Shown here piece by piece: positions 2,431 to 45,413 of a stretch of 45,413 bases of DNA. How positions within the stretch are numbered: the first letter of the stretch is position 1; every line of letters starts with the position of its first letter. Source of the DNA: a virus; IMG/VR virus record IMGVR_UViG_3300008255_000025. One strand, given 5' to 3'. A model generated the notes under the pieces. That model did not search any database and was not told where the DNA came from. It saw only the letters and a list, made by a program, of their open reading frames with translations. Position numbers and translations under genes: made by a program.

Positions 2431-3496
2431 CTTACAAGAACTTCTTCGTCAAGGGCAAATGTCACAGAATCAACCTGTGATTGAAGGTATCTCTAATAAT
2501 CGTGCAGATTATGGGGGCCCTTCCTCTGCGTCTTTTCAAGCACAGCCTAATGCAGCGCCTCCTCCTACGATGAGCGGCACGGCTCCTGATCTCTCTACTA
2601 TACTAACTCCTCCGGGGCAAATTCCCGGTGCGGGAGCTCCTGTAGCCCCTCAAATGGAGATGTCGGCGGCTCCCACTGCTCCTGTTGAAGAGCCTGTTGA
2701 CAATCGTCCTTCTGGTATGTTTGGAATGAAGGGAACTATTAGAGATATTATTGGCTCTATCGGAGATGCTCTTCTAGTACAAGGAGGTCGTAACCCTGTC
2801 TACGCTCCTCAGAAACGAGAGGAGAAACTCGGAGTGGCTATGCAAGGGTTCGATCAGGACCCTGAAGGAGCGATTGCTCGTATGCGACAACTAGGGTTCG
2901 GTAAAGAGGCTGCTGAAGCTCGTGAAGCGCTGATGAAGCAAAAGGCCGAACAGCAGAAACTTAGCTTCCTTCAGAGAAAAGAAGATCGAGAAGACCGAGA
3001 AGCTACTAATGAAGAGTACGAAGCTGGCCTTGATCTAGGTGGCCGTCTTGGCGCTGCTATGAACGAAGATAACTACCCTGCTATGAGGGAGCTTTACAAG
3101 AAGTTTTACGTTAGTCGTGGTATGGAACCACCTGTTAATCTTCCTGATGAGTACAATCCAGAAGCAGTTCAGAGTATAGTTGATCTTGGTGTAGATGCTG
3201 CTAAGCGCATGGAACTAGAGATTGCTAGGGCTAAAGCAGAAGACCTTGCTAAGTATCGTGATCGGTATCTTGGTATTCAAGAGAAGACTGCGGATAGTCT
3301 TGCGACTACTAGAGAAGCTACTATTGCTGACAAGGCCGTAGGAAGGGAAATCCAACGAGAAGCTGAAGTAGGTCGTAACACTCGTGCTGCTAACGCGCCT
3401 CCTAAGAAGGGTGAACGCCGTACTGGCACAGATGCTTCTGGAAAGAAAAGCACTAGAGAGTGGACAGGAACAAGATGGAAGCCGGTGGCTGACTAA
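2423..3496 (+). CDS. Internal virion/ejection protein candidate (Pro/Ala-rich N-terminus, highly charged coiled-coil C-terminus)
   Basis: 357-aa ORF whose start overlaps the upstream stop (ATGCTTAA). Sits between the fibre gene and the giant virion protein. No recognisable catalytic motif. Confidence 0.6.
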   Translation: MLNLQELLRQGQMSQNQPVIEGISNNRADYGGPSSASFQAQPNAAPPPTMSGTAPDLSTILTPPGQIPGAGAPVAPQMEMSAAPTAPVEEPVDNRPSGMFGMKGTIRDIIGSIGDALLVQGGRNPVYAPQKREEKLGVAMQGFDQDPEGAIARMRQLGFGKEAAEAREALMKQKAEQQKLSFLQRKEDREDREATNEEYEAGLDLGGRLGAAMNEDNYPAMRELYKKFYVSRGMEPPVNLPDEYNPEAVQSIVDLGVDAAKRMELEIARAKAEDLAKYRDRYLGIQEKTADSLATTREATIADKAVGREIQREAEVGRNTRAANAPPKKGERRTGTDASGKKSTREWTGTRWKPVAD

Positions 3497-6831: not shown

Positions 6832-7474
6832 TAAAGAGCTAAGCCCCGGCATGTTGCAGGCTTTGACGGAACTCTTCGAGCAGCTTAAAGCTATTCTCGC
6901 TGAGATTAACCAAGAAGCAGAGCAACAGAAGCCGAGTGTCCTCACTAACAAAATCCTACTGGAACTAGTCTGCCATGAGGGTATTGTTCTTGAGGCTTAC
7001 AAGGACAGTAAAGGTATCTGGACATGGGGTGTCGGCGTAACTAATAAATCCGGCCACGGTGTATTACGTTACAAAGACAGGCCCCAGTCTCTCAAGCGAG
7101 TTATTGAAATATATAAGTGGCTGCTTGAGGCTAAATATCTGCCTGATGTTCTAGAGGCTTTCAGTGGGCGCGACCTCACTGAGGAGCAACTGGCTGCTGC
7201 ACTCTCTTTTCACTACAACACAGGAGCAATTGAAAAGGCTTCATGGGTGAAAAGCTTCATGCTGGGTAATCCAGATAAGGCTTACGTGGAGATTATGAAT
7301 TGGAGGTCTCCTCCTGAAATCATTCCACGCCGTAAAGCTGAGAGGGACCTTTTCTTTAAAGGTGAGTGGTCCAACGATGGTATGGCTACAGTTTATACTA
7401 AGGTTCGGAAACCTTCATACACTCCTGTATGGAAGTCAGCCGAGCGGATTGACATTTCAAAGGAGTTAGAATAA
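6806..7474 (+). CDS. Endolysin, glycoside hydrolase family 24 (phage lysozyme)
   Basis: HEGIVLEAYKDSKGIWTWGVGVT matches the E-x8-D-x5-T lysozyme catalytic motif. The 5' end overlaps the upstream gene by 26 nt. An alternative ATG at 6851 is possible. Confidence 0.8.
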   Translation: MSSSQNQNNKELSPGMLQALTELFEQLKAILAEINQEAEQQKPSVLTNKILLELVCHEGIVLEAYKDSKGIWTWGVGVTNKSGHGVLRYKDRPQSLKRVIEIYKWLLEAKYLPDVLEAFSGRDLTEEQLAAALSFHYNTGAIEKASWVKSFMLGNPDKAYVEIMNWRSPPEIIPRRKAERDLFFKGEWSNDGMATVYTKVRKPSYTPVWKSAERIDISKELE

Positions 7475-10628: not shown

Positions 10629-11177
10629 TTATGCTGCACTCTTCTGTCGGAGTGCTGTCAGTTCATTAAATCGAGAGAGGAAGAACGCTTTCGCGTCTTT
10701 TGGTTGCATACCGGTAATCACTACGTCAGCGATCTTGGTACGAGTATGCCAAAGATTGTCTACCCCTCCTGTTGCGATTTGCTCTCGTTCTGCTTTATAT
10801 AGCTGCTTGTCTGCAACATGTACTGAACGAGGCATAGGCCAAGAAAGATTAAAATAATTAAAAAGGGCCTCCTGTACAGCCTCTTCAATCTTCTTGTATT
10901 CAGGTAGCAAAGCCTTCAAAGGAGACGAAACATCTCCACAGAAAGCCTCGCTCGCGTCATGCAGTAAGCCTGCAAGGGCTGCACTCTCCGGCACGATACG
11001 TGAGACAAGTACGCTGTGTTCAGCTACGCTGTAGAACTTGTCACTGTGTCCCGTGTATCGACAAACATGAGACAAAGCGTGTGCAATAGTCTTAATATCA
11101 AACTCGTGCCTAAACGGATCATTAAAGTCGAAGAAATCTCCGTTGTTAAGCAGAATAGAGGTTTTAGTCTGTTCCAT
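10629..11177 (-). CDS. HD-domain phosphohydrolase (YfbR/5'-deoxynucleotidase or dNTPase-like)
   Basis: HALSHVCRYTGH...YSVAEHSVLVS...LLHDASEAFCGDV (H..HD..D metal ligands). ATG at 11177 is preceded by AAGGAAG. The ORF-track start at 11210 is less likely. Confidence 0.8.
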   Translation of the reverse strand: MEQTKTSILLNNGDFFDFNDPFRHEFDIKTIAHALSHVCRYTGHSDKFYSVAEHSVLVSRIVPESAALAGLLHDASEAFCGDVSSPLKALLPEYKKIEEAVQEALFNYFNLSWPMPRSVHVADKQLYKAEREQIATGGVDNLWHTRTKIADVVITGMQPKDAKAFFLSRFNELTALRQKSAA

Positions 11178-11604
11178 TTTCAGCTTCCTTCTGACGGAGA
11201 TATAACTCAAGTACCGCTAGTGCGCCCCAAGCTTCGTGCTTAAGATGCATCAGATGGCTGTCATCGTCAATCTCTTCGCCCATAGCGAGCTTCAAGGCAT
11301 GACGATATTTAGCGTCTTGATAACGATTGTACCCGTCCTCTACGCCTTCCCACCCTTTCCAAGCGTATTTATTGGCTCCGAAAGTAGAGATTTCAGCAAC
11401 ACCCCAAAGGGCTCGTGGGAAGTAGTTGATTACGCCTTGAAAGACAGAAGGCTTGCCGGCATCGTCCTTAATAGCACCAGTGCCAATCTTGTCTTCGCTA
11501 TCTGGCGTATCGCTGGCCGACCACTTGGCTAGAACCTCTTGTACTACTTCTTCGTCAGTCTCACCAGTAGAGGTGAGCTGTTCTGGATATGCTTCTTTTC
11601 CCAT
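11164..11604 (-). CDS. All-alpha MazG-like dNTP pyrophosphohydrolase (dATP/dGTP diphosphohydrolase-type N-terminal domain)
   Basis: DDAGKPSVFQGVINYFPRALWGVAEISTFGANKYAWKGWEGV...YQDAKYRHALKLAMGEEIDDDSHLMHLKHEAWGALAVLEL matches the phage DUF5664/MazZ-like pattern as I recall it. Confidence 0.7.
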   Translation of the reverse strand: MGKEAYPEQLTSTGETDEEVVQEVLAKWSASDTPDSEDKIGTGAIKDDAGKPSVFQGVINYFPRALWGVAEISTFGANKYAWKGWEGVEDGYNRYQDAKYRHALKLAMGEEIDDDSHLMHLKHEAWGALAVLELYLRQKEAENGTD

Positions 11605-22055: not shown

Positions 22056-22397
22056 CTATTCTGTGTACAGTATTTTTGATACGTCGAACTCGTCTAGAAT
22101 ATCGACTCGATCTGGGTGCTTCCCTTTGAAGGAGTGTAAGATGCCGTAGTTACTAGCGCCTGCCACCCCGTAGGAAGATTTGGCACAGATGTAGCGTGCC
22201 CCAGACTTAGAAGTGAACGTATAATTGTCGTCATCCTCTTCAATCTTTTTGATGCCGGAGTTCAGCCTCCACGAGTCTCCGTCTAAGTAGCCTCCTGACC
22301 ACGTACCGAAAACCTTTGAAAAGGTCTCCCCTTCATTGTTTGTTACGTTGATAATACACCATTTATTCGGTGTAACCGCATAATGAGTGCTACTCAT
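22056..22397 (-). CDS. Hypothetical 113-aa protein translationally coupled to the ATP-grasp gene
   Basis: ATG at 22397 overlaps the ATP-grasp stop (ATGA). The ORF-track start at 22454 would sit inside the upstream gene. The C-terminus is ...DVSKILYTE. Confidence 0.6.
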   Translation of the reverse strand: MSSTHYAVTPNKWCIINVTNNEGETFSKVFGTWSGGYLDGDSWRLNSGIKKIEEDDDNYTFTSKSGARYICAKSSYGVAGASNYGILHSFKGKHPDRVDILDEFDVSKILYTE

Positions 22398-23128
22398 AGT
22401 CCTTCTCCTATAGCCTGTGCGTATTTGTTGGCTGTACGTTCTTCGAGGCCACAAGCCGTGTTCACCTCAAGCACGTAGGCTTGTTGATCGTGTGCGTTCC
22501 ACATGACGTCAACCCCACCGAAGTTAAGTCCGAGTGATTTGATAGCCATGATAGATTGCTCCACCACAGCAGGAGGCACGTCACTGAACTCAGCCTCTAC
22601 AAACACGAACCCTCCCTCAAGGTTACGTATCATCCAGTTAGGGTCATAGATAGACAGTTTACGAGCCTTACGCTGCACAAAGAATGCCTTATCGTTGAAG
22701 ATATGTACCCTATACTCGTGCTTCTTCTTTATATATTGCGTATAAAGAGGGGCAGGAACCAATGTTGCAGCATCAGTAGCCACAACAATACCAGCACCGC
22801 TATGTCCAGAGAGCAAGGTACGGCACATAACAGGGAACACATCGTCAGGTACTTCATCCATCTTCTCCCAGAAAGGAGGCACACAGACACCAGCATCACG
22901 CATAATCTTGAACGCGGTCAGCTTGTTCTGTGCTTGTTCTACATTGGCGTTGAGGGTGGTGGCCGGCTGGAAAACAGGACAACTAGAGCTACCCCAATTA
23001 ACAATGACGTCAGATGGACGAGGCTTAAAGACGCTTCCGACATGTTTTAATACCCTTCCTTTGATAGCCAAAGCCAACGCCTTGGCTGATTTCGAGCCTT
23101 GTTTATATGGATATATCTTAATTCTCAT
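22394..23128 (-). CDS. ATP-grasp ligase (RimK-like/R2K-clade phage version)
   Basis: NKLTAFKIMRDAGVCVPP, CRTLLSGHSGAGIVV, HEYRVHIFNDKAFFVQRKAR, FGGVDVMW...YVLEVNTACGL: the canonical ATP-grasp strand order. Confidence 0.8.
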   Translation of the reverse strand: MRIKIYPYKQGSKSAKALALAIKGRVLKHVGSVFKPRPSDVIVNWGSSSCPVFQPATTLNANVEQAQNKLTAFKIMRDAGVCVPPFWEKMDEVPDDVFPVMCRTLLSGHSGAGIVVATDAATLVPAPLYTQYIKKKHEYRVHIFNDKAFFVQRKARKLSIYDPNWMIRNLEGGFVFVEAEFSDVPPAVVEQSIMAIKSLGLNFGGVDVMWNAHDQQAYVLEVNTACGLEERTANKYAQAIGEGL

Positions 23129-23150
23129 AATCTTTCCTTTTATTCATCAT

Positions 23151-24272
23151 CTAAATGGAATCGTCTTCATCTTCGTATCCGTCCTCTTCATCCATGTCAG
23201 TCAACTCGTTGAACCACAATGGGCTTGGTGATGATGGTGGCGGTGGAATGAAGCCCGTAGCAGCTTGAGTGTACTGTGCAGCAGCGCCAAGTGCCGAGGC
23301 TTCCATCGCCGTAGCCGCTTGAACCGCTTGAATCATTGAGGCCATCACGTCTTTAGAGCTGCGTTTGAACGGGTCTTTCAAGTCCTCAACACGGTCAAGG
23401 AGGGTCCAATCACGGCAGTAGCAGATATCTTGCGCGAACCGGATACCTTCGTACATAGACTCACGTATCTGTTGGTCGTTCATGTTGATGCCGTTACTCA
23501 CAAGTTGTGCCTTGTCTCCCAACACGGAGGAAAAGAAGTCAGACGGCCCTTGCTCAGAGAACAAAGCCGGGATATCACGAGGGTCTTTGAACTCGCCAGA
23601 CAGTGTGTACAATCGTTCAAGGATACTAACCCAATCAGTAATCAAGTCAGCCGTCTGTACGCCACGCATGGTGCGTATCTCAATGGACCCGAACTTCTGC
23701 AACGCAGAGATATTGAACCCAGAGTAGTGCATACCGCTAGAGAACTGCATCTTTCCATCTGCCTCCAAGAACTTCTTGATGGAGTTGACTATGCTCGGTG
23801 CATCCTTGCTTCGCAGACAGAATAGATTACCTACACGGAACTCACCACACCATTCGGTCAACACTTCCTCGAAGCACAGATACAGCGCAGAGAAGCAGGC
23901 GATGCGGTCCAAGTGGAACTCTTGACAGTTCAGGTGTACATGGACGCTGGTTCGATTACTCTCGTCGAATACCGTTTTCTTCTTCTCGAACAAAGACCAG
24001 AGGAGGTCACAAGCATCCGAAACCTTATCAAAAGGGATAGGCCGGGCGAGAACATACTCACCACTTTCCTCACCACGCAATGAGCCGTCTTTATGGAAAG
24101 TCCAGTAAGGTTGAAGAGAACTCAGATTGCTAGGAATGTTCTTTCCTTCAACCTCAATCTCAATACCTACCTCGCCTTTAGTGGTATTCTGGCCCATAAT
24201 GTCCCGCATACGGAAGCTTGGCCGGCGCAGCGTCTTGGTGCGACGCAGAAAAACTTTATTATTGATATCCAT
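23151..24272 (-). CDS. Glutamine-synthetase-fold amidoligase (Amidoligase_2 family)
   Basis: EVGIEIEVEG, HKDGSLRGEESGEYV, TSVHVHLN, GSIEIRTMRG. The acidic tail is ...DMDEEDGYEDEDDSI. Confidence 0.75.
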   Translation of the reverse strand: MDINNKVFLRRTKTLRRPSFRMRDIMGQNTTKGEVGIEIEVEGKNIPSNLSSLQPYWTFHKDGSLRGEESGEYVLARPIPFDKVSDACDLLWSLFEKKKTVFDESNRTSVHVHLNCQEFHLDRIACFSALYLCFEEVLTEWCGEFRVGNLFCLRSKDAPSIVNSIKKFLEADGKMQFSSGMHYSGFNISALQKFGSIEIRTMRGVQTADLITDWVSILERLYTLSGEFKDPRDIPALFSEQGPSDFFSSVLGDKAQLVSNGINMNDQQIRESMYEGIRFAQDICYCRDWTLLDRVEDLKDPFKRSSKDVMASMIQAVQAATAMEASALGAAAQYTQAATGFIPPPPSSPSPLWFNELTDMDEEDGYEDEDDSI

Positions 24273-24291
24273 TTACTTTCTCCTTGAGTTA

Positions 24292-25071
24292 CTAGTGATT
24301 TGTAAGAATTGAGATTACCTCAAACTCATTAAGGTCCTCCACCGCTTCTTTGAGGTGTCGGAACTGTGGTGAAAGCTGCACGCTTTTCTTATTGACGAAG
24401 CCGATAACGTCTCCGCGATAGTTAAGGAAGGCTGTACGAATAGGCCCTTTAATCAGGGCAAACTCCCGATGAAAGGCAACCGACGTGTTCAGAATATCAT
24501 CGCTATCAAACGCTTCAAGACATTCGCTCAGAGTCGGATACTGTCCAGTTATGCAATCATAGAAAGCCTCTCCGTATATATCGACGCCGTAGCCCTTGTT
24601 GTTAGGGTTTGAGGTCAAAGTAATCAAAGAGCTGTCAACCATCTGATAAATCAAACCCTGCTCCGATTTCCTAGTAGGACGCCTACGGGTGTACACCGCC
24701 TTACCGTGGTCATTAAGCATCCCAAGAGGGAAGGGCCGAAATCTGTTGAACGAAGGAGAGTTGATTACCTTTCGTTGTATCTTCATGTCGGGGTTCGCCT
24801 CCATCCACTTGTCCATGTTCTCACCCATAGGGTTCCAATCCCAAGGGTATTTAGCACTAGGAGGGGATTTAGGAGAGCTGTGAAGAATATTGAAAGACAT
24901 TTCCGCCTCTCCTTTACCGACCGGCTCAAGGTATAGACGAAAGATGCCGTCAGATTTGTGGTTGGTAATAGTGAGGACGTAATAAGGCTCATCGTCGTAC
25001 AGGACGATAGTGTTACGCAACCTCATGTTAGCTTCCGAGAGAGTCTCGTAAAAACTTGGATATGCTACCAT
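24292..25071 (-). CDS. Hypothetical protein sandwiched between the two amidoligases
   Basis: 259-aa ORF with a 12-19 nt gap on each side and an RBS. No motif recognised. Confidence 0.65.
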   Translation of the reverse strand: MVAYPSFYETLSEANMRLRNTIVLYDDEPYYVLTITNHKSDGIFRLYLEPVGKGEAEMSFNILHSSPKSPPSAKYPWDWNPMGENMDKWMEANPDMKIQRKVINSPSFNRFRPFPLGMLNDHGKAVYTRRRPTRKSEQGLIYQMVDSSLITLTSNPNNKGYGVDIYGEAFYDCITGQYPTLSECLEAFDSDDILNTSVAFHREFALIKGPIRTAFLNYRGDVIGFVNKKSVQLSPQFRHLKEAVEDLNEFEVISILTNH

Positions 25072-25083
25072 TGTGTTTCTCCG

Positions 25084-25938
25084 CTAGTCAAGTTTAATAG
25101 TCTTGATCGGAAAGGTGAAGTTCCGAGTAAGGTCAGATGATAGATGTGAGGTGTTGATGCTTTCGATCAAAGTTCCGCTGAACCTCTGGTAAGTCGAACG
25201 ACCCGGAAGGTAGATCGAAGCCATCAGATTGATAGCTGTGTTCATACGGTTCCAAACCTCAAGACGTTTCGGTTTCGAGGTAATCCAGAAATTCGACAAC
25301 ACACGATACTCAACTCCATAATCCTTATAGCGACAAGCGCCGGCTTTACCATACAACGATCGGCGGATAGGGTCAGGGTCTTTAGTCAGAGACCAAGCAC
25401 CAAGAAACCAGTCAAGCTGTTTCACGAGGTCTTGGCAGGCAGTCAGATGCCCAAGGTCAGAGGTGTCAGCGTCTTTAGTCCACCCGATATGAAGATGACC
25501 GCTGGCTGTCCGGAGACGAGGCCTGTCATTATTCATAGGGGGAGGATTAACGCCGCCCGTCCACGCATTGAAATCGGGGCTGCACCCGAGGGCCTTCGCC
25601 TCATCTGGCGAGTTGGCCCATACTTCTTCATCGAACTCCACGGATGGTATCACCGAGAAACCATAACCCTTCGGAAGCATAGCCTTCAATGCGCCCATAA
25701 CTTTGTTGATGTTGTGGTTGAAGGCGTCGAAATTATCTACGGGGTCAATGTTGAACTCCGCAGCCATACCGTCAACTTGAACAGCGCCACCCTCAACAGG
25801 GTGAGGCTCTAATTTAGTACCGGGGATAAGACCCTCCGCACTTACATGGCGTCCCTTGTCATCAACGATGAACAACTCAGGGTCAGCGCCAAACGTAAAC
25901 CCATCAAGGGGAGTTACTGCGTTAGACGTACTTACCAT
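25084..25938 (-). CDS. COOH-NH2 ligase, phiEco32-like type 2 (GCS2/glutamine-synthetase fold)
   Basis: FGADPELF, MAAEFNI, ASGHLHIGW, YGVEYRVLSNFW. Confidence 0.75.
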   Translation of the reverse strand: MVSTSNAVTPLDGFTFGADPELFIVDDKGRHVSAEGLIPGTKLEPHPVEGGAVQVDGMAAEFNIDPVDNFDAFNHNINKVMGALKAMLPKGYGFSVIPSVEFDEEVWANSPDEAKALGCSPDFNAWTGGVNPPPMNNDRPRLRTASGHLHIGWTKDADTSDLGHLTACQDLVKQLDWFLGAWSLTKDPDPIRRSLYGKAGACRYKDYGVEYRVLSNFWITSKPKRLEVWNRMNTAINLMASIYLPGRSTYQRFSGTLIESINTSHLSSDLTRNFTFPIKTIKLD

Positions 25939-25952
25939 AACATTTCCTTTCT

Positions 25953-27083
25953 TTAATTAGTTGAGTAAAGTGGCCGAGTTGTGTAGATACGGGTAGCTTT
26001 GGCCTTACCACTATCCGTACATTCGTGGCAGATGACTTGAGTGTAGTCATCATCGAATATCGTAATATTGTCAGCGGAAGGATCAAACTCTCCTCCGCAC
26101 CACGAGCAACCATTCAGACCGAGCATTTCTTCCTCGTCCTTGGTGAAGTACCCACCAAACAGGCTGTGCCGATCACCGAACATGGTCATGACGTTAGACT
26201 CTTTAGGGTCCGAATACGTATCCCGGTTCATCCCATGGGAGGTCGTCGTCAAACTCTTGGTCCCACCATTCCGGCCCTGCGTAAAAGGGCTTTTATAACC
26301 ACCACCGCTTGTTGTTGCGACCGGTACAGGCTCCTTTCCCTTGAGTATTTGTACCTTCGGCTTAATGGGTTTGATACCATTATGTTCTCGAATAGCCTCA
26401 ACATTGTACTTGTAATGAAGATCAACCTCAGTTCCGAAGAACTTGTAGGCCTTATCGGTGTACAACGGCTGACCTTGAGCAGACAAGGCGCAAGCGGCCT
26501 GTATCATCGGATACTCCGAAGCCCAGAAAAGCTTGTTGCAATCCTCCGAATGAGCCAGCCACATGGGCCGCTCTTTGTTTCTCAGGAAGTTCAACGTCCC
26601 TTCTGATAGATCATACCAGACCAAAGCCCACGCACCTTCAAGCATTGCTACAGTTTTATTGATGCCGAGTTTCTCAATAGCTTTGAAGATTGCCTCACTG
26701 TCAACATCGAAATCCTCCTCTAAAACCTCCTTAAGTTTGATAAAAGAGGAAGTAGTGAGGGTTCCGTTATGCGCCCCGATGATATGCCCACACTCAAACG
26801 GATGGGCGTTGACGCCGTTGACCTTACCTTTGGTCGCCGCCCTGTTGTGTCCAATGAACACGCTGGACTTGTGTCCGTCCACCAAAGTCTTGAAGCGGGT
26901 CATATCAAACAGATCGAAAGGATGGCTAGCAATCTTGAGAATATCAGCCTCCTTCCCTTCCTTGTCAATAACGGCTACGCCGGTAGAGTCCGGCCCTCGA
27001 AAATAGTCGTAACACAGGAGGCGCTTGAGTGTTGCCTCATCCTTGAACTCAAGTTTCCCTGCAATTCCTACATGTCCACACAT
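25953..27083 (-). CDS. Class II (Ntn) glutamine amidotransferase with a C-terminal zinc ribbon
   Basis: MCGHVGIAG (Cys2 nucleophile), GPDSTG, GHNRAATKG, NAHPF, GAHNGTL. C-terminal CSWCGG...CHEC. Confidence 0.8.
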   Translation of the reverse strand: MCGHVGIAGKLEFKDEATLKRLLCYDYFRGPDSTGVAVIDKEGKEADILKIASHPFDLFDMTRFKTLVDGHKSSVFIGHNRAATKGKVNGVNAHPFECGHIIGAHNGTLTTSSFIKLKEVLEEDFDVDSEAIFKAIEKLGINKTVAMLEGAWALVWYDLSEGTLNFLRNKERPMWLAHSEDCNKLFWASEYPMIQAACALSAQGQPLYTDKAYKFFGTEVDLHYKYNVEAIREHNGIKPIKPKVQILKGKEPVPVATTSGGGYKSPFTQGRNGGTKSLTTTSHGMNRDTYSDPKESNVMTMFGDRHSLFGGYFTKDEEEMLGLNGCSWCGGEFDPSADNITIFDDDYTQVICHECTDSGKAKATRIYTTRPLYSTN

Positions 27084-27988
27084 TATGCTTTATCCTTCTT
27101 CTCTTGAACTCTTTTGATTGGTTGTGTCTTCGCGTTGATGCGACGAATGTTGTCGCCCCACACTAGATCGTTGTTGTGGACTACCAACTCTTCGAGAAGA
27201 TCGAAGGTCCACTGAGCGTATTGGTAGTACCCGCGATATTCTGGATGGCCTTGGATACCAATACAACACGTATCCTTGTACCAGAAGGCCTCAATATCGT
27301 TACTGTCTCCTTCCTCTATCTTCGAGGGCGTGGCGGCCCGTTTCTTGGATTGACCAACAGAGATAGCCAACACTTCCATCTTCTTGTTTTCGATAACCAT
27401 CTGATGATGAACAGAGGAAATCTTCGGGATGGTACGCTTGTTGAAGATATCGAACATCGAATGATCGCCGTAATGCCCGTCCACGTCCTGATACAGCTTG
27501 CCGCCGTTCATAACATGAAGGAACTGTGCGCCACGGCAGATACCCAACATAGGCACACCATGATCAAGACAATCACGATAGACCGCTATATCCTCCTGAT
27601 CGCGCCGATCGTTGAAGTACGTTTTGGGATGCTGCACTTCGCCATACAGTTTTGGGTTGACGTCTGAACCACCAGAAAAGATAACCAAGTCAGCCTCAAG
27701 AGGGCTCTTAGCTTTCCGGCAACATGCACGAACAAAGAGTTCAGCGAACGCCGCCTGCTCTGAGGCATCACCGACAACCCACACCTCAAGCCAAAGCTCC
27801 GGGATTTTCAGCGTAGTGTCCTTAATCAAAGTGATCGGACGCAACGGTGGCTTGGTATCATCCTTAGCCTTGTCCTGTACCTTGTCTGCTTCTTTTTTCA
27901 TCGCCATTTTTTCCTTGTGTTTGACGCGGTTAATTCGAGCGCGACTCATGCGACCCTTGTTGTTGTTTGCTTTGCGTATTCTGGGCAT
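27083..27988 (-). CDS. Class I GATase-fold peptidase C26 (gamma-glutamyl hydrolase/PuuD-like) with a basic N-terminal extension
   Basis: PMLGICRGAQFLHVMNGG (Cys nucleophile) and IGIQGHPEY (His-x-Glu). The first ATG is at 27988. The ORF-track start at 27997 is a TTG. The stop overlaps the next ATG (TAATG). Confidence 0.75.
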   Translation of the reverse strand: MPRIRKANNNKGRMSRARINRVKHKEKMAMKKEADKVQDKAKDDTKPPLRPITLIKDTTLKIPELWLEVWVVGDASEQAAFAELFVRACCRKAKSPLEADLVIFSGGSDVNPKLYGEVQHPKTYFNDRRDQEDIAVYRDCLDHGVPMLGICRGAQFLHVMNGGKLYQDVDGHYGDHSMFDIFNKRTIPKISSVHHQMVIENKKMEVLAISVGQSKKRAATPSKIEEGDSNDIEAFWYKDTCCIGIQGHPEYRGYYQYAQWTFDLLEELVVHNNDLVWGDNIRRINAKTQPIKRVQEKKDKA

Positions 27989-28175
27989 TGGGGTCAATCT
28001 CCTTAATCTCCCTTTTGATGAGGTTGGTCATTATCCTATCAGCCTCTTCGTAATCCCGCCAATAATAGGCAAGATAGGCATCATAGATAAGATCGTCAAC
28101 AGTAGGACGCGGTTTTGGCGTCCCGAACCAACGATCAATCAGGCTTTTCCTGCTTCTGTGGTGGCCGTAGGGCAT
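27930..28175 (-). CDS. Hypothetical 81-aa protein overlapping both neighbours
   Basis: GAAGGAGG lies 10 nt upstream of the ATG. The central segment TVDDLIYDAYLAYYWRDYEEADRIMTNLIKREIKEI looks protein-like. The 3' 59 nt overlap the GATase-I-like gene in another frame. Confidence 0.45.
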   Translation of the reverse strand: MPYGHHRSRKSLIDRWFGTPKPRPTVDDLIYDAYLAYYWRDYEEADRIMTNLIKREIKEIDPNAQNTQSKQQQGSHESRSN

Positions 28176-28977: not shown

Positions 28978-29505
28978 TTATTCAGATACACGTATTGGGA
29001 AAGCGTTCTTTGATTTATCCTCTTTCTTTTCTGGTTGTCCGAAAGCTAGGTGGTAAACGTCAACCCAGCTACCGCTATTACTATTGAGGAAAGACGTCAC
29101 AAGTTTGAAGCCGTGAGTTTCGGTCAGGATTTTTGCCCACTCGATTTGGTAACTCCTAGAGAGGACAATCTCGACAAGACCGGCCTTTCTTACTTTCAGG
29201 AGGTATTCAAGATACCTTTCCAATCGTTTCTCGTAGGACTCCATTGGAGCCTCAAGCGGGTAAAAACGCTTACTTTTCCCTGTCCGATAGCCGTTAGCCT
29301 CGGTGGGCATTTTCTTCACGGCTTTTAGGGCGTGTGTCGAAGCTTTAGGGTTAGCCCCAAGCGCGTAGATATGCTTGATGCCGCAGCAACCAGCACCGTG
29401 CAATATCATACCCATAGTCTGATAAGACAGCTCTCCCAGGTCAGGGAATATTTCATCCTCATCACAAAGAGCGAACGGGTTTTCATATCCAAGTTCAGCC
29501 ATCAT
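28978..29505 (-). CDS. Hypothetical protein, paralogue B (GCC-motif family)
   Basis: 175-aa ORF. ILHGAGCCGIKHI and core VEIVLSRSYQIEWAKILTETHGFKLVTSFLNSNSGSWV. Confidence 0.65.
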   Translation of the reverse strand: MMAELGYENPFALCDEDEIFPDLGELSYQTMGMILHGAGCCGIKHIYALGANPKASTHALKAVKKMPTEANGYRTGKSKRFYPLEAPMESYEKRLERYLEYLLKVRKAGLVEIVLSRSYQIEWAKILTETHGFKLVTSFLNSNSGSWVDVYHLAFGQPEKKEDKSKNAFPIRVSE

Positions 29506-29864
29506 ACACCTCCTTCTGACATAACTCTGTTGGCAGCGTTCTTACGCTCCCTGTGTGCTCGCCAATCCCCGTCAGCGACGATAGGCAGATTAGCAACAGA
29601 CCGGTTCCAGACGTAAATCCAACCATCTTTGAAAGGTTTGCGAAGATACAGCGAGGATGATAGATTATCGGGGTTATACCCCTCATAAGCATCGTGCTGC
29701 GTTACATCATCAACCTCAATAGAGGTATATGCGAATGTTCTCGTTTCACCACCTAAGAGGACGGCGGGAAAATGCCCGACATCATACATGGTTCCGTAAG
29801 CCTCGCCCTCAGCGGGTTTATCTTTCGGCATCAACGTGCCGTAAACATATATTTTATGAGTCAT
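29502..29864 (-). CDS. Gamma-glutamyl cyclotransferase-like (AIG2/GGCT fold)
   Basis: IYVYGTLMPKDK...GTMYDVGHFPAVL...HDAYEGY...YLRKP. Confidence 0.7.
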   Translation of the reverse strand: MTHKIYVYGTLMPKDKPAEGEAYGTMYDVGHFPAVLLGGETRTFAYTSIEVDDVTQHDAYEGYNPDNLSSSLYLRKPFKDGWIYVWNRSVANLPIVADGDWRAHRERKNAANRVMSEGGV

Positions 29865-30955: not shown

Positions 30956-31735
30956 TTAATACTGTTCGGCTTCTTCTCTTGTCATAAAGAAGTGGATACC
31001 ATTAGTGCACTCAATCCTAATGTCGTTATCATATTTGTCCGGATAAACGGTCTTACCTACCTTATAGAAGACTCGTCCGGAATGTTTATCACAACCCTCC
31101 GGCCCTTCTAAGACTTGAACATATTCAGCCCTGCATTTACGTCCTACAAGAGACGCTGTTCTTTTAGCCTTTTCTGGTATCAGCAGTTTAATAACCCCTG
31201 ACTTAATTTTCTTGAACCCAACAAAAGACCCCTCTTGAGGTATTTGAAAGTTAGGTAGGTAAGCCCCTGTAAGGTCAGCCTCTCTAAGGTTAGCCCCTGT
31301 AAGGTAAGCCTCTCTAAGGTTAGCCTCTCTAAGGTTAGCCCCTGTAAGGTCAGCCCCTCTAAGGTTAGCCCCTCTAAGGTCAGCCTCTCTAAGGTTAGCC
31401 CCTCTAAGGTAAGCCTCTCTAAGGTTAGCCCCTCTAAGGTCAGCCCCTCTAAGGTCAGCCCCTCTAAGGTCAGCCCCTGTAAGGTCAGCCCCTCTAAGGT
31501 CAGCCTCTCTAAGGTTAGCCCCTGTAAGGTTAGCCCCTCTAAGGTTAGCCCCTGTAAGGTCAGCCTCTCTAAGGTTAGCCCCTGTAAGGTCAGCCCCTCT
31601 AAGGTCAGCCCCTGTAAGGTCAGCCCCTCTAAGGTCAGCCCCTCTAAGGTAAGCCTCTCTAAGGTTAGCCCCTGTAAGGTCAGCCCCTCTAAGGTTAACG
31701 CAGGGTTTAATGATAGATTTATTAAAGTTAACCAT
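30956..31735 (-). CDS. Pentapeptide-repeat protein with a globular C-terminal domain
   Basis: 29 consecutive [N/D/Y]-L-[R/T]-[G/E]-A units (residues 14-158) plus one degenerate unit, then a roughly 95-aa domain ending ...CTNGIHFFMTREEAEQY. Confidence 0.9.
   Translation of the reverse strand: MVNFNKSIIKPCVNLRGADLTGANLREAYLRGADLRGADLTGADLRGADLTGANLREADLTGANLRGANLTGANLREADLRGADLTGADLRGADLRGADLRGANLREAYLRGANLREADLRGANLRGADLTGANLREANLREAYLTGANLREADLTGAYLPNFQIPQEGSFVGFKKIKSGVIKLLIPEKAKRTASLVGRKCRAEYVQVLEGPEGCDKHSGRVFYKVGKTVYPDKYDNDIRIECTNGIHFFMTREEAEQY
31256..31700 (-). repeat. 15-bp periodic tandem DNA repeat (coding, inside the pentapeptide-repeat gene)
   Basis: Plus strand reads as variants of cccctctaaggtcag, cccctgtaaggtcag and cctctctaaggttag in head-to-tail register. 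Confidence 0.9.
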
Positions 31736-32081: not shown

Positions 32082-32576
32082 CTATTTGGCGGGAACAAGT
32101 GAAGCAAGAGCTTTAGCAAGCTTTTCAGTCTTGGTCTTGTCGCCGGCCTTGACATGGTTTTCCTTCAGCTCCTTATCAAAACGCTTTGCCAGCCGCGCAA
32201 CGAACGCAACAGCTTCGTCATAAGTCATTGGCTTACTTTCAGGCGTTTCGTTGGCAATCTGCCAAAATGGCGTAGCTTCCGCCCCTTCCAGATTGAAGTC
32301 AACAAACAGATTGTTATCAGACAGCCGCAACTTGCTCTTGAAAGTAGCGTCATTCTTGGTCACAATTGGCGAATAGAGCGAGAACCATTGAATAAGCATT
32401 GTCCGACGCATAGAAGCGGGCATTGCCATGACCAAGTCTTGCGCCTGCGAACAATCCCCATGCTCTTTGGCATGTTTCATGATAAGCATGGCCGTTTCAT
32501 GAATAAGACCGTTCAGCTTTACGGCGTTCGTTGTAATCCGCGTAATATTCGATTTAATCTTAGCAAAATTAGACAT
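32082..32576 (-). CDS. Hypothetical early protein
   Basis: 164-aa ORF with an RBS region upstream. No motif recognised. Confidence 0.65.
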   Translation of the reverse strand: MSNFAKIKSNITRITTNAVKLNGLIHETAMLIMKHAKEHGDCSQAQDLVMAMPASMRRTMLIQWFSLYSPIVTKNDATFKSKLRLSDNNLFVDFNLEGAEATPFWQIANETPESKPMTYDEAVAFVARLAKRFDKELKENHVKAGDKTKTEKLAKALASLVPAK

Positions 32577-32635: not shown

Positions 32636-32662
32636 GCTACAGGGATATGAACCGTGGAAAGG
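32636..32662. repeat. Inverted repeat, left arm (gctacaGGGATATGAACCGTGGAAAGG)
   Basis: The reverse complement matches 32982-33008 at 25 of 27 positions, with a 21-nt perfect core. Confidence 0.9.
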
Positions 32663-32672
32663 GTTGTTTCGT

Positions 32673-32954
32673 TCATTTTGTTTTCTGGATTAATTCAACG
32701 CTATAAAGCTTGTTATCAATCGGCAAATTGACAAGCGATTGACCGTTCACCAATTTGCAAATCAGTGTAAGGACTGTTTCGTCCGGTAAAACGCGCAAGA
32801 GCATTAGCAAGCTACGTTCATTGAACGCTTTATAGATTGGCTTATCGTTGCCTGTTTTGAGGCAAAGCAAAGCGTCAACCCGTTGCGTTTTGTTGTGGTG
32901 ACTGCCAAGCCTAACGGCTGGCAATACAGGCTTTGAATGACGTAGTATGGACAT
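32673..32954 (-). CDS. Hypothetical 93-aa protein. First cistron of the leftward arm, bracketed by the inverted repeat.
   Basis: ATG at 32954 has AAAGGAG 6-7 nt upstream. No motif recognised. Confidence 0.6.
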   Translation of the reverse strand: MSILRHSKPVLPAVRLGSHHNKTQRVDALLCLKTGNDKPIYKAFNERSLLMLLRVLPDETVLTLICKLVNGQSLVNLPIDNKLYSVELIQKTK

Positions 32955-32981
32955 AGGTTATCTCCTTTCAAATGGGTTGAA

Positions 32982-33008
32982 CCTTTCCACGGTTCATATC
33001 CCCATAGC
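32982..33008. repeat. Inverted repeat, right arm (CCTTTCCACGGTTCATATCCCcatagc)
   Basis: See the left arm. This arm also contains a local hairpin: TGAACC-gtggaaa-GGTTCA on the minus strand. Confidence 0.9.
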
Positions 33009-34234
33009 GACACTTTGAAGCGTCACTATAGAGACACGAAATAGCTAGGCGGTAGCTACCATTACAGCAATTGTTCCTAGCTAGTGAGAGGGCCGCCTGT
33101 TCTATTGTCAATTCCACCTAAAGCGCCGGAACCTATCGTCAAATATGACTGCTTGTCTCTCAATTCAGAACATACCCAAAGCGTTAAATGCGCCTCATAC
33201 GTTCAAATCCGGTTCAGGGGAATTACGCGCCTATTTGCGACCCCTAGCCTAACCCGCTTCCCTTGCAATCGGAATATAGCCGTTAGACTGCCTAGCTTTA
33301 CAGACGTTTCACGCTAGCCGATAAAACTAGCGGAGCGACGACTTGCAAAGGCCCGTTGATCGCTTACCCTATTTGCGCCAGCACTAGGACGTCACTCCTA
33401 GTCGTTAAGCTATCCCTGACACCTAACCAATATAGCTAAGACGGGAACCTTTGGCGCTTTCCGTTCAACCGGGCAAGCTATGTAAATTCAGCATATCGGC
33501 CACTAAAGGCCCGTTTAATAGGGAAAGACGTTAAACCCGTTTTCTTTCCTTCCGCGGCCAATGGCTGAAAGCCGAGCCGATATGTCTCGACTTGCTTAAC
33601 AGCATGATTTTTAGTCGATAGCGGAATGAGACGAACCGTGCATTTTGAGCGATGAACAGAGTAAGACGGGTAGTATAATACCTTTGAAAGTGCTTGCGTA
33701 ATAATGTTGCGTAAGTTTCGTGATCGTTTATTATATAGTTGCGTCTCTAATACAACTAGACAACGCTTATGCGGGACGGCTGGAAATACGGCATATGTTA
33801 CGGTTACTATACCTAACGATATCAATAAGTTACGTTGTAAAAGACACCAACACAGGACTAGAAGTGGTCTAGCGACTACAGTTGTAGTCAATGTTATCGC
33901 TATTGCAAGTCATTAGCAGGGGGGGGGTGGCTCACTGTTTTAGCACAGTAACACAGGGGGCGGGGAAGGGGGGTATACCGTGAAATGGCGTGAGACTCTG
34001 TCAGGGAGATAACCCACCTAACGTCCTAGAAAAAAAATTAGGATTTTACCTTTTTGAGTCTATAAAGTAACCTACCCAAGGTTTATCATTCTTCTAACCA
34101 TTCTCTTGACAAGAAGAGAGGGCTCGCACAGCTCGCCCCAGTCATGGTAAGAGGTCCTTATCCTTTGTTTATTCCTTTTTAATGCTCTTATCTCCCACTT
34201 TTTCATTTTTCTTTGTTGATTTTTCATTTTTTCC
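33009..34234. other. ORF-free, hairpin-rich intergenic region between the divergent arms. Candidate ncRNA, origin or packaging-site region.
   Basis: The only ORFs of 60 aa or more here are three with non-ATG starts, no SD and implausible sequences. At least six perfect 5-7 bp hairpins, 9 CTAG tetramers in 357 bp, and short direct repeats. Confidence 0.7.
33919..33973 (+). repeat. G-tract cluster: G9-tgg-[hairpin]-G5-c-G4-aa-G6
   Basis: Read directly: caGGGGGGGGGtggctCACTGttttagCACAGTaacacaGGGGGcGGGGaaGGGGGGtat. Confidence 0.9.
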
Positions 34235-34263
34235 TTGACAAGTGGCCTTGAAAATGTTATAAT
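34235..34263 (+). promoter_or_regulatory. Consensus sigma70 promoter with an extended -10 and a T-rich upstream element, driving the packaging/structural arm
   Basis: TTGACA-17 nt-TATAAT with TGt upstream of the -10. A T-rich UP-like tract lies at 34160-34234. Confidence 0.8.
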
Positions 34264-34360
34264 ACTCTTATAAGGTAATGTGATTAAAAAAAGTTATATA
34301 AAAAAGTAATTAGAAAAATGATTAACTTTGTATATGTAACTTTCTAGTGGGGTGGATTTT

Positions 34361-34459
34361 ATGGAAATTTTAGGATATGTCGCAATTGGGGCAATTGTCC
34401 TTGCAACCATAATAGGTTTTGCCCTCTTGGTGGCTCTTGCAGACGGTATGGGCCGATAA
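34361..34459 (+). CDS. Small hydrophobic membrane peptide (32 aa, MEILGYVAIGAIVLATIIGFALLVALADGMGR)
   Basis: Hand-translated. GGTGGA lies 4 nt upstream. It ends 3 nt before the next ATG. Confidence 0.45.
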   Translation: MEILGYVAIGAIVLATIIGFALLVALADGMGR

Positions 34460-34462
34460 CAC

Positions 34463-34711
34463 ATGGCTACTCCTGCGAGACAGAGGGCTCAAAAGAAGTA
34501 CAATAAAAAGCCCGTACAAAAAAAGAACCGGGCACGTCGGAATGCAGCTCGTGCCAAGATGATCAAAGCCGGCAAAGCCCGTAAGGGTGACGGCAAAGAT
34601 GTAGCCCACAAGGATAACAGACCAAGCAACAACAAGAGGTCAAACCTCAAGATGCAGTCCAAAGCGAAGAATCGCTCTTTCCCAAGGAACAAACGTGCCG
34701 GACGTAAGTAA
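34463..34711 (+). CDS. Minimal, very basic HNH-like (HNH_3-type beta-beta-alpha-metal) protein next to the terminase
   Basis: GDGKDVAHKDNRPSNNKRSNLKMQSKAKN fits the H-x-D...NN...NL...N pattern. About 40% of residues are K/R. Confidence 0.5.
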   Translation: MATPARQRAQKKYNKKPVQKKNRARRNAARAKMIKAGKARKGDGKDVAHKDNRPSNNKRSNLKMQSKAKNRSFPRNKRAGRK

Positions 34712-44450: not shown

Positions 44451-45413
44451 ATGGCCGCAGCTCTTTACTACAACGCTTTTGTACCTGCTTACTCTAATAT
44501 TGGGGTTCCGATAGCAGGGGGCCGTTTGTATTTTTACTACACAGAGACGACTGATCTCGCCCCTATTTACTCAGACGCAACTCTTACTACCCCTTTGACT
44601 AACCCTGTTGTAGCTAATCTAGCGGGCAAGTATCCTGATATCTATATGGATGATACCATCCTTTATAAAATCCAACAAACAGATAGTGTTGGTGGGGCGA
44701 TTGGCGACGCAGTAGACCCATATATTCCCGGCACCGTAATGATTGGCGGAGGCTCTGTTCTCGAAGGTACTGACGGGTCTTCTCTAATTGGGCATATCGC
44801 CGCTGGGGCAGGAGCTACAGCAACAACTGTCCGAGATAAACTTCGGAAAACCGTTCATGTAACGGATTATTGGCTAGCTATCCATGCTAATTACACAGCC
44901 GCATTTGAAAATGCTTTGACTGCTCTAGCTTTAGGTGGAACTTTAGTGGTTCCTTCAAAAGCAACCTCCTACCAAGTTAACGACGAATTAACTTTACCCT
45001 CCAATATCGAGATTGTTGGGGAGGGTCGTCCCCTTATCGAGCAAATTACAAACGGCAAGAGATTATTCATCGGCTCAAATATCTCGAACGTGACGCTTCG
45101 CGGGTTTAGGGCAAAGGGCGTCGGCTCTGCAACTGTGTTCACGTCTAGTGCCAGCGACGGCCTTATCAACATTACGTCCACAACCCTTGGTGGCTCTAAT
45201 AACATTAGAATTGAGAGTGTGGAAGTTTACGAGACATACACTGGAATTGCGGCAACTCGCGTTCAGAACCTATGGATTGAAAAATGCACGATCAGGAATT
45301 TTCTGGTTTACGGCATATTGGCTTCGTCCAGTTATAATTTCTCGATTGCGCGCAACAATATTTATTCTTGTGACCAAGCGGGCGCGGCCAATGCTTACGG
45401 CATTTCAGCAACC
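44451..45413 (+). CDS. Tailspike/tail fibre, N-terminal part. The frame is open to the window end and continues at base 1 through the circular junction.
   Basis: ATG at 44451 has AAAGGA upstream. I translated it by hand with no stops: MAAALYYNAFVPAYSNIGVPIAGGRLYFYYTETTDLAPIYSD...TVHVTDYWLAIHANYTAAFENALTALALGGTLVVP (pectate-lyase-3-like start of the beta-helix). It is absent from the ORF track because there is no stop in the window. Confidence 0.85.
   Translation, partial: MAAALYYNAFVPAYSNIGVPIAGGRLYFYYTETTDLAPIYSDATLTTPLTNPVVANLAGKYPDIYMDDTILYKIQQTDSVGGAIGDAVDPYIPGTVMIGGGSVLEGTDGSSLIGHIAAGAGATATTVRDKLRKTVHVTDYWLAIHANYTAAFENALTALALGGTLVVPSKATSYQVNDELTLPSNIEIVGEGRPLIEQITNGKRLFIGSNISNVTLRGFRAKGVGSATVFTSSASDGLINITSTTLGGSNNIRIESVEVYETYTGIAATRVQNLWIEKCTIRNFLVYGILASSSYNFSIARNNIYSCDQAGAANAYGISAT
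45291..45413. repeat. Terminal direct repeat copy 2 (identical to 1-123)
   Basis: See copy 1. Confidence 0.95.

Follow-up and report, generated by a model that had tools for sequence, protein, structure and literature searches.

The early and late operons of the uncultured virus IMGVR_UViG_3300008255_000025 diverge from a long gene-free stretch, positions 33009-34234 of the 45,413-nucleotide (nt) window (the whole sequence analysed), which we propose to be a control region in which a long leader of the early operon carries RNA hairpins, probably interleaved with DNA sites. Judging from sequence comparison, we give this reading a probability of roughly 45%. An initial annotation, made from the letters of the window, had noted a stretch without open reading frames (ORFs), rich in CTAG palindromes and hairpins, and had offered as explanations a large structured RNA, an origin and an array of protein-binding sites; comparison with relatives confirms the observation, partly supports the interpretation, and identifies the stretch as a conserved composite non-coding control region. 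Most of it would be transcribed leftward by the host RNA polymerase, giving an untranslated leader of about 1.2 kb or more whose 5' end portion would carry a hairpin with tandem G.A pairs followed by UGUCAA (34147-34102). Next would come a conserved, unstructured C-rich and U-rich tract (34050-33918), further 3' a motif of 66 nt (33437-33372) that includes a covarying hairpin, and last, just before the first early genes, more hairpins with CUAG stems. These signals may act in cis, through antitermination, termination, processing or stability, and would thereby set the timing of early genes. The region is unusual in being long, gene-free and common to dozens of uncultured P22-like phages.

The window comes from a phage of an uncultured clade with a P22-like morphogenesis module. 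Its two ends (1-123 and 45291-45413) are identical over 123 nt, which shows that the sequence was assembled as a circle and puts the genome at about 45,290 bp. Throughout, early sense denotes the minus strand of the window. The comparison covered about 60 related metagenomic phages (the relatives) and drew on 80 IMG/VR loci picked by their large terminase subunit (TerL) and on further metagenome loci. Conserved blocks were found by iterated nhmmer against the 80 TerL-chosen loci, and interval comparisons cover 41 distinct loci, each taken from the conserved element described below to the early gene of the phrog_1448 family, the first that is widely conserved. IMG/VR is rich in relatives with 59-72% identity in TerL, and 50,697 phage records of GenBank contained no match to the region (blastn) or to 20 kb (megablast).

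A conserved element of about 130 nt is found in 58 of the 80 TerL-chosen loci and in additional metagenome loci, in one orientation throughout. One or more G-runs come first, followed by (A/G)TGRA, then after about 40 variable nt by ACCT and, about 10 nt further on, by TA.ATAAAAAATT; the element carries an invariant A6 tract, is C-rich in early sense, and always lies 15-525 nt from the rightward late promoter. RNAalifold returned no consensus structure for the element on either strand (0.0 kcal/mol), and its folding z-scores of +1.5 and +0.5 are no better than those of shuffled sequence. The element and its synteny are lacking in the five cultured or annotated phages nearest in TerL (Brevundimonas Strzyga, MW202777, Microcystis Mae-JY09, Desulfofustis MD02 and Roseobacter CRP-6). 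Conservation of the region as a whole is limited to short blocks with unalignable DNA between them, and some blocks flip orientation. The block at 33047-33091 is shared with the related locus L097 at 85% identity over 46 nt.

Two hairpin motifs, R1 and R2 (Table 1), are fixed to the early-sense strand. R1, the hairpin nearest to the late promoter, gave 33 matches, every one in early sense; 89% of its pair cells are paired, four of its six pairs show compensatory changes, and its covariation score was reached by none of 500 shuffles. The changes turn GGGC/GCCC into AGGC/GCCU and UGGC/GCCA, and CC/GG into GC/GC. An invariant TC/TC mismatch on the plus strand of R1 becomes tandem G.A in early sense, a stable RNA motif, and plus-strand A-C in L073 and C-A in L059 turn into G-U. 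These non-Watson-Crick positions, wobbles and tandem G.A alike, thus fit an RNA made from the early-sense strand. R2, whose covariance model was built from four sequences, gave 12 good matches, again all in early sense and mostly 500-950 nt upstream of the phrog_1448-family gene. Pairs were counted over 10 aligned sequences, a set without the window's own copy. Standard pairs fill 98.6% of the pair cells, four of the seven pairs show compensatory double changes, and none of 500 shuffles attained the covariation score; the G-U and U-G pairs of R2 would become A-C mismatches on the opposite strand. Moreover, perfect 7-bp hairpins are in excess in the pooled leaders (57 vs 27.8 expected), compared with 27 vs 24.1 in the downstream coding DNA. 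Small-scale RNA structure in the region is thereby supported at the level of sequence, as local hairpins with compensatory changes. The suggestion of a structured RNA survives in this local form, the hairpin of R2 being the ACTAGGA/TCCTAGT palindrome already pointed out, and not as a large global structure. Wider scans of IMG/VR added little: the R2 pattern recovered only the three contigs already known, and the 84 exact matches to the R1 stem are uninformative, being about the chance estimate for 16 specified bases.

The arrangement of promoters is in line with leftward transcription through these hairpins. A rightward consensus promoter is present in every locus, and in the window it drives the genes for a predicted HNH-like protein, the small terminase subunit (TerS), TerL and P22-like morphogenesis proteins. 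The interval itself contains a consensus promoter in 0 of the 41 loci. A leftward consensus sigma70 promoter stands between the element and the late promoter in 13 of 52 IMG/VR loci and also in L097 and L098 (15 in total), and wherever R1 is present alongside it the order is promoter, R1, element, early genes, with R1 150-230 nt downstream of the promoter in L028, L029, L053, L054, L058, L062 and L097. In L097, where a public gene caller gives no gene for 1,980 nt, the leader would measure about 1.57 kb between its predicted start and the gene of the phrog_1448 family.

Coding potential is as poor as first described. The mechanical ORFs of 33009-34234 are all short or implausible, and none of the 31 stop-free segments of at least 25 amino acids (aa) in 32900-34300 matches any related locus by tblastn. 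In the reverse comparison, small ORFs of the relatives found no match in the window other than the phrog_1448 gene and genes that lie beyond it in the early arm. One candidate, a 51-aa Lys/Arg-rich ORF (34072-34227, minus strand) with an AAGGA Shine-Dalgarno sequence, overlaps R1; it was judged a probable artefact of the A-rich region upstream of the late promoter, since L097, the relative used for this comparison, has only a 19-codon ORF at that position.

Several observations weigh against a long early leader. The window has no convincing leftward sigma70 promoter, as the initial annotation had already remarked: the best leftward matches reach 9/12, and the weak candidates are TTGCGA-18-TAAAAT at 34385 and TTGTCA-16-AATGAT at 34112. 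A family promoter profile run over the whole genome recovered only 34227-34277 (+), 15484-15439 (-) and 21412-21376 (-); both of the latter sites lie inside the early arm, so that its first 11.5 kb (32954-21412) have no recognisable promoter. In one subclade only 14-76 nt separate the element from the late promoter, too little to accommodate a leftward promoter upstream of it. The folding energy of the region as a whole is unremarkable. From one relative to another the GAACCGTG and TTRCG modules change orientation, a behaviour of DNA sites, and CCTAGC hexamers stay fixed while their spacers vary, more like a protein-recognition site than a covarying stem. Finally, the wobble type among single-defect leader stems favours the early-sense strand (124 vs 90; shuffles 57 vs 62), a bias that is equally strong in coding DNA and therefore indicates the direction of transcription at most, not function. 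Given a window without such a promoter and a subclade in which the element abuts the late promoter, we infer by homology that the window's own copy is transcribed, and put forward the roles of its signals as proposals.

A stronger version of the leader reading, which we hold to be doubtful, would have the early operon open with a functional untranslated RNA of 1.1-2 kb, a cis-acting hub that loads or modifies the host transcription machinery and amounts to a new antitermination system outside the lambdoid phages. The tandem-G.A hairpin, the poly-C/U tract and the 66-nt motif would then act together, either in antitermination of the put or nut kind or by capture of Rho or another host factor on the invariant C-run, and an Arg-rich protein might be the partner of the hairpin in those lineages that carry one. 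In 16 of the 41 loci the first leftward ORF past the element, 140-770 nt beyond it, encodes a low-complexity protein of 73-140 aa with an Arg-rich N-terminus (for example MGLTRNERRKRAKARN, MATRNDRRRKALARRR and MTRHQRRKLARKRK). Loci with MTRHQRRK-type proteins carry a different hairpin (ACACCG-loop-CGGCACAC) after the same TTGACA; hairpin type thus changes with the type of Arg-rich protein, as expected of co-evolving protein-RNA pairs. The Arg-rich ORF is absent from 32955-33918 of the window and from about 11 other loci; these gene-less loci and the window keep R1, several gene-carrying loci have no R1, and the relatives' proteins match no Pfam or PHROG family. For these reasons an N/nut-like mechanism is a lead and not a finding. 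We found no relevant literature on Arg-rich antiterminators in metagenomic phages or on CTAG-rich intergenic regions of phages. Examples of the Arg-rich genes are L032 3697-4044 (-), L072 6303-6617 (-) and L035 6027-6434 (-), and others occur in L003 and L026.

Table 1. Sequence features in and around positions 33009-34234 of the window.
Feature	Position	Strand	Description
27-nt inverted repeat	32636-32662 and 32982-33008	.	arms 93% complementary
CTAG cluster	33042-33402	.	nine CTAG, four of them in CCTAGC/GCTAGG hexamers, mostly inside dyads
Palindrome	33042-58		TAGCTA-ggcgg-TAGCTA
Palindrome	33077-84		CTAGCTAG
Direct repeat	33230 and 33368		CCTATTTGCG
Hairpin or dyad	33312-33332	.	CGCTAG-N9-CTAGCG
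R2, 66-nt motif	33372-33437	-	GUGYCAUAGGUAGC..AACGA, then 7-bp hairpin (33383-33402) with loop GUNRCG
Hairpin of motif R2	33383-33402		ACTAGGA-cgtcac-TCCTAGT
Repeat module	33627-33663	either orientation in relatives	GAYGAACCGTGC-N7-GCGAYGAAC; directly repeated, spacing about 21 nt
Five STTRCGK repeats, on one strand	33693-33835 (143 nt)	+	spacings 13, 32, 59 and 32 nt
Two adjoining small hairpins	33858-72 and 33874-89	.	CTAGA-agtgg-TCTAG and GACTAC-agtt-GTAGTC
Conserved element, about 130 nt	33918-34050	+	G-run/A-tract, unstructured
R1 hairpin	34102-34147	-	GGGGC-GA-SS-loop-SS-GA-GCCCC, tandem G.A; UGUCAA 8-9 nt further 3' (TTGACA on +)
Late promoter	34235-34263	+	TTGACA-17-TATAAT; consensus sigma70, TG extension, A/T-rich upstream region

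Between R2 and the element the window contains two repeat modules with relatives elsewhere in the clade. The module at 33627-33663 recurs in about 15 relatives, 40-450 nt from the element (about 860-950 nt in L030). The STTRCGK repeats, a pattern picked after viewing the sequence, resemble the TTATTRCG arrays of L032 and L033, which run in the opposite orientation with repeats about 31 nt apart, and in other subclades (L066, L063) TGTTCY repeats recur every 11 nt. Modules that tolerate either orientation and follow the helical repeat suggest DNA sites bound by protein, and this is the more likely nature of both window modules. Several relatives additionally carry T-rich tandem units such as CTCTTTATCTTATC and TCTTAGTA between R1 and the late promoter (L056 at about 3030-3200, L063 at about 3100-3230, L080 at about 620-800, L071 at about 7300-7420), whose counterpart in the window is a mere T-rich tract at 34150-34230.

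Such repeats would suit a replication origin, which we regard as a possible but less than probable explanation, and one compatible with a leader. Iterons would bind an initiator, the G-run/A-tract element would serve in recognition and unwinding, transcription from the flanking promoters would activate the site, and replication would use the T7-like primase-helicase and PolA, both of which the phage encodes. Phased direct repeats do lie just upstream of the element (TGTTCY and TTATTRCG in relatives, the five STTRCGK in the window), the orientation of the repeat modules is not fixed, the element combines an invariant A6 tract with a lack of RNA structure, and the site separates the two divergent operons where cumulative GC skew reaches its minimum. 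The skew turn says little about an origin, because the switch in gene orientation coincides with it. Moreover, no initiator gene was identified beside the region, the phrog_1448 protein having no recognisable DNA-binding fold; iteron types vary among subclades and the pattern in the window was chosen post hoc; and strand-fixed covarying hairpins would be left unexplained.

The CTAG cluster bears on a second alternative. It is real: 33009-33420 contains 9 copies, where the density of the genome would predict 1.22, and no other 412-nt segment has more than 6; the Poisson probability is 5.7e-6, or about 6e-4 when corrected for some 110 windows. Over the whole genome CTAG is not depleted (135 in 45,413 nt, observed/expected 0.92). 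The palindromes and hairpins listed in the initial annotation all lie where it had placed them; for the CCTATTTGCG repeat the copy at 33368 stands, and the other begins at 33230, one base from the reported 33231. Across the family, the element-to-phrog_1448 intervals measure 1.08-2.86 kb (1,342 nt in the window) and hold 6.8 CTAG per kb (393 in 57.8 kb) vs 2.5 per kb elsewhere in the same loci (847 in 333.9 kb), a 2.7-fold excess. Enrichment rises to 5.3-fold for CCTAGC/GCTAGG, 8.7-fold for GCCTAGC and 15-fold for CCTAGCTA. Part of the excess is explained by the CUAG found in many R2 stems: it is self-complementary, so that each such stem adds two copies; a second source would be the CCTAGC hexamer that recurs ahead of early genes family-wide.

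These hexamers, with other CTAG dyads, might form an operator array for a phage or host regulator of the early genes, a reading to which we assign rather low probability. In its favour, CCTAGC and GCCTAGC are enriched in homologous intervals, CCTAGC equally on both strands (65 and 65) and with no wider consensus, and CTAG-to-CTAG distances of 11-13 nt are over-represented. A CCTAGC-N6-GCTAGG-N6-GCTAGG array lies 25-40 nt 5' of the phrog_1448-family start codon in L032 and L033; L071 has the same array with a first spacer of 9 nt, and L073 and L063 have paired CCTAGC/GCTAGG dyads in that position, the hexamer being constant and the spacers variable. Against it, no DNA-binding protein was identified, the sites of the window have variable flanks (CGCTAG, ACTAGG, TCTAGA) at a distance of 90-450 nt from the first start codon, and at least one CTAG dyad (33383-33402) covaries like a stem where a protein site would stay constant. 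A protein-binding array, as first suggested, is supported for part of the region, by the CCTAGC spacing of about 12 bp in relatives and the modules found in either orientation.

The same element could be a packaging site, pac or cos, where the small terminase would bind the G-run/A-tract and neighbouring repeats upstream of the terminase operon; we consider this quite improbable. The element is always linked to terminase, 15-525 nt from the promoter that serves the genes for TerS, TerL and the HNH-like protein; as in SPP1-type pac regions, an A-tract is accompanied by phased repeats; and a small HNH-like protein is encoded immediately ahead of TerS. However, a TerL with Terminase_6N/6C domains accompanied by a P22-like portal and coat fits headful packaging, the packaging and head genes being of P22/T4 type, and the pac site of P22 is located within the TerS gene. 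In the window the element is about 860 nt from TerS, the 123-nt terminal overlap of the window lies elsewhere, and the HNH match is weak (Pfam HNH_3, E = 0.0017). Three long contigs (those of L012 and L043, and L008) break 10-51 nt from the G-run, at points that are not homologous. The contig of L012 (44.6 kb) ends 51 nt from the G-run with a 141-nt terminal overlap that spans the element, so this suspicious end proved to be a circular-assembly overlap and not a physical end; the contig of L043 has no overlap. These contig ends were rejected as evidence for a cos site, which is not supported.

Decay of coding DNA, in which the lineage of the window would have lost the Arg-rich-protein gene and retained a non-functional remnant, is unlikely and has a slender chance at best. 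Such an ORF does occupy this place in 16 of the 41 loci and is missing from the window and about 11 others. Yet tblastn finds no remnant of the Arg-rich proteins, and in the gene-less loci the interval still spans 1.1-1.3 kb and has non-coding blocks in common with the window: R2, the GAACCGTG module and, in L097, the block at 33047-33091.

The description of the region as rich in hairpins does not hold for this one sequence: the stretch has 5 perfect hairpins of at least 6 bp vs 2.6 expected, a count equalled or exceeded in 71 of 442 genome windows (16%) and 18 of 300 shuffles (6%), and the pair at 33858-33889 was not found conserved in relatives. The hairpins of the stretch gain meaning only through comparison with relatives. 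Rfam 15 gave 0 matches at gathering score over the whole window, and a permissive search of 32800-34500 brought up mir-788 (an unrelated miRNA model, E = 0.34), then a model of a snoRNA (E = 0.7) and cow-rumen-1 (E = 1.4), none of which came near its threshold; folding is ordinary, with z = -0.70 for 33030-33440 on the minus strand and sliding windows mostly between -2.8 and +1.9. A large, ornate, stand-alone non-coding RNA of the GOLLD/ROOL/HEARO kind, which the long, ORF-free, positionally conserved stretch and its covarying local hairpins had brought to mind, therefore has next to no probability, as there is no Rfam match at gathering score or with E below 0.3, no thermodynamic signal, no consensus fold in the most conserved block, and conservation only in short blocks amid unalignable DNA, some of them flipping orientation. 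An N4-like virion RNA polymerase using hairpin promoters was also dropped, because the 1111-aa virion protein has no PHROG match and no match to an RNA polymerase in PDB, and several relatives use consensus host promoters.

On the early side, the arms of the 27-nt inverted repeat exactly flank the first early ORF (93 aa), and each contains GAACCGTG, which has three copies in the genome, all within 32649-33640. The repeat might mark the edges of a cassette, pair as a long-range stem in RNA or represent a regulatory site that was duplicated. The phrog_1448-family gene (32082-32576, minus strand, 164 aa) has 72 homologues in public metagenomes; its product has invariant His, Cys and Asp positions and a confident AlphaFold model, all-helical with a predicted local distance difference test (pLDDT) score of 88. 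Foldseek gives nothing below E = 1 for this model against PDB, and neither the 164-aa nor the 93-aa protein has a PDB sequence match. In a scan of species-representative genomes (GTDB) that used this gene alone, no relative was found, and hence no prophage copy and no clue to the host.

The early arm runs on the minus strand from 32954 down to 8433 and encodes a primase-helicase, PolA and a class II ribonucleotide reductase. The late arm (+) encodes an 82-aa HNH-like basic protein, TerS (Terminase_2), TerL, a P22-type portal, scaffold, coat, head-closure and ejection proteins, endolysin and holin. The 82-aa protein (34463-34711, plus strand), directly 5' of TerS, is extremely basic, bears the degenerate motif DVAHKD...N...SNL and is kept across the clade (phrog_4590). 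An unusual gene set lies in the early arm at 10629-11604 (-), 22394-27997 (-) and 29502-29864 (-): a MazZ-like dATP/dGTP diphosphohydrolase, a YfbR-like HD hydrolase, two glutamine amidotransferases (one peptidase C26-like), a phiEco32-type COOH-NH2 ligase and a GGACT cyclotransferase, the amidoligase and ATP-grasp matches being weak. By sequence, this set could belong to a pathway modifying nucleotides, DNA or peptides; nothing indicates a 2-aminoadenine genome, since PurZ was not seen. One early-arm protein (30956-31735, minus strand) combines pentapeptide repeats, which are common in cyanobacteria, with a DUF5758 domain. Neither an integrase nor a repressor was recognised among the ORFs searched, and a scan for tRNA and tmRNA found none.

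If the leader model is true, the region offers concrete, testable cis-elements for the timing, in a large uncultured clade, of early genes that have no recognisable early promoters, and it may reveal N-like antitermination outside the lambdoid phages; if the region is instead an origin or a pac site, the conserved element is still a useful landmark for annotation.

Set beside known systems, the region shares with GOLLD, ROOL and HEARO a long non-coding phage stretch with hairpins, and differs in having no covariance-model match and no signal of global structure or stability. Iteron origins, such as lambda ori, and SPP1-type pac sites likewise place phased short direct repeats beside an A-tract in intergenic DNA, whereas here no linked initiator gene was found, the repeats vary by subclade, and strand-fixed covarying hairpins are present. 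The RNase III hairpins of the T7 early region are also conserved hairpins between or ahead of early genes on a host-polymerase transcript; the stems here, of 6-8 bp, are far shorter than RNase III substrates. The lambda N/nut system (pL-nutL-N, and the related put of HK022) has a promoter-proximal RNA hairpin in the untranslated start of the early operon, a place that R1 would take in the seven relatives where it follows a leftward consensus promoter by 150-230 nt. The small, probably disordered first early protein of about half of the relatives (M..TRNERRKRAKARN) resembles the N-terminus of lambda N, MDAQTRRRERRAEKQAQW, and subclades with the other Arg-rich motif, MTRHQRRKLARKRK, have another hairpin. 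In contrast to lambda, the window keeps the hairpin without a gene for an Arg-rich protein, boxA was not seen and the only conserved linear motif recognised is UGUCAA, 3' of the hairpin, the loop of R1 is variable and its invariant part is the tandem-G.A stem where lambda boxB has a pentaloop, and the leader would exceed that of lambda five- to sevenfold in length. Regulatory leaders, and control regions that separate early from late operons, are a familiar kind of feature; the hairpin motifs R1 and R2 are new, and neither they nor the 130-nt element match a described family.

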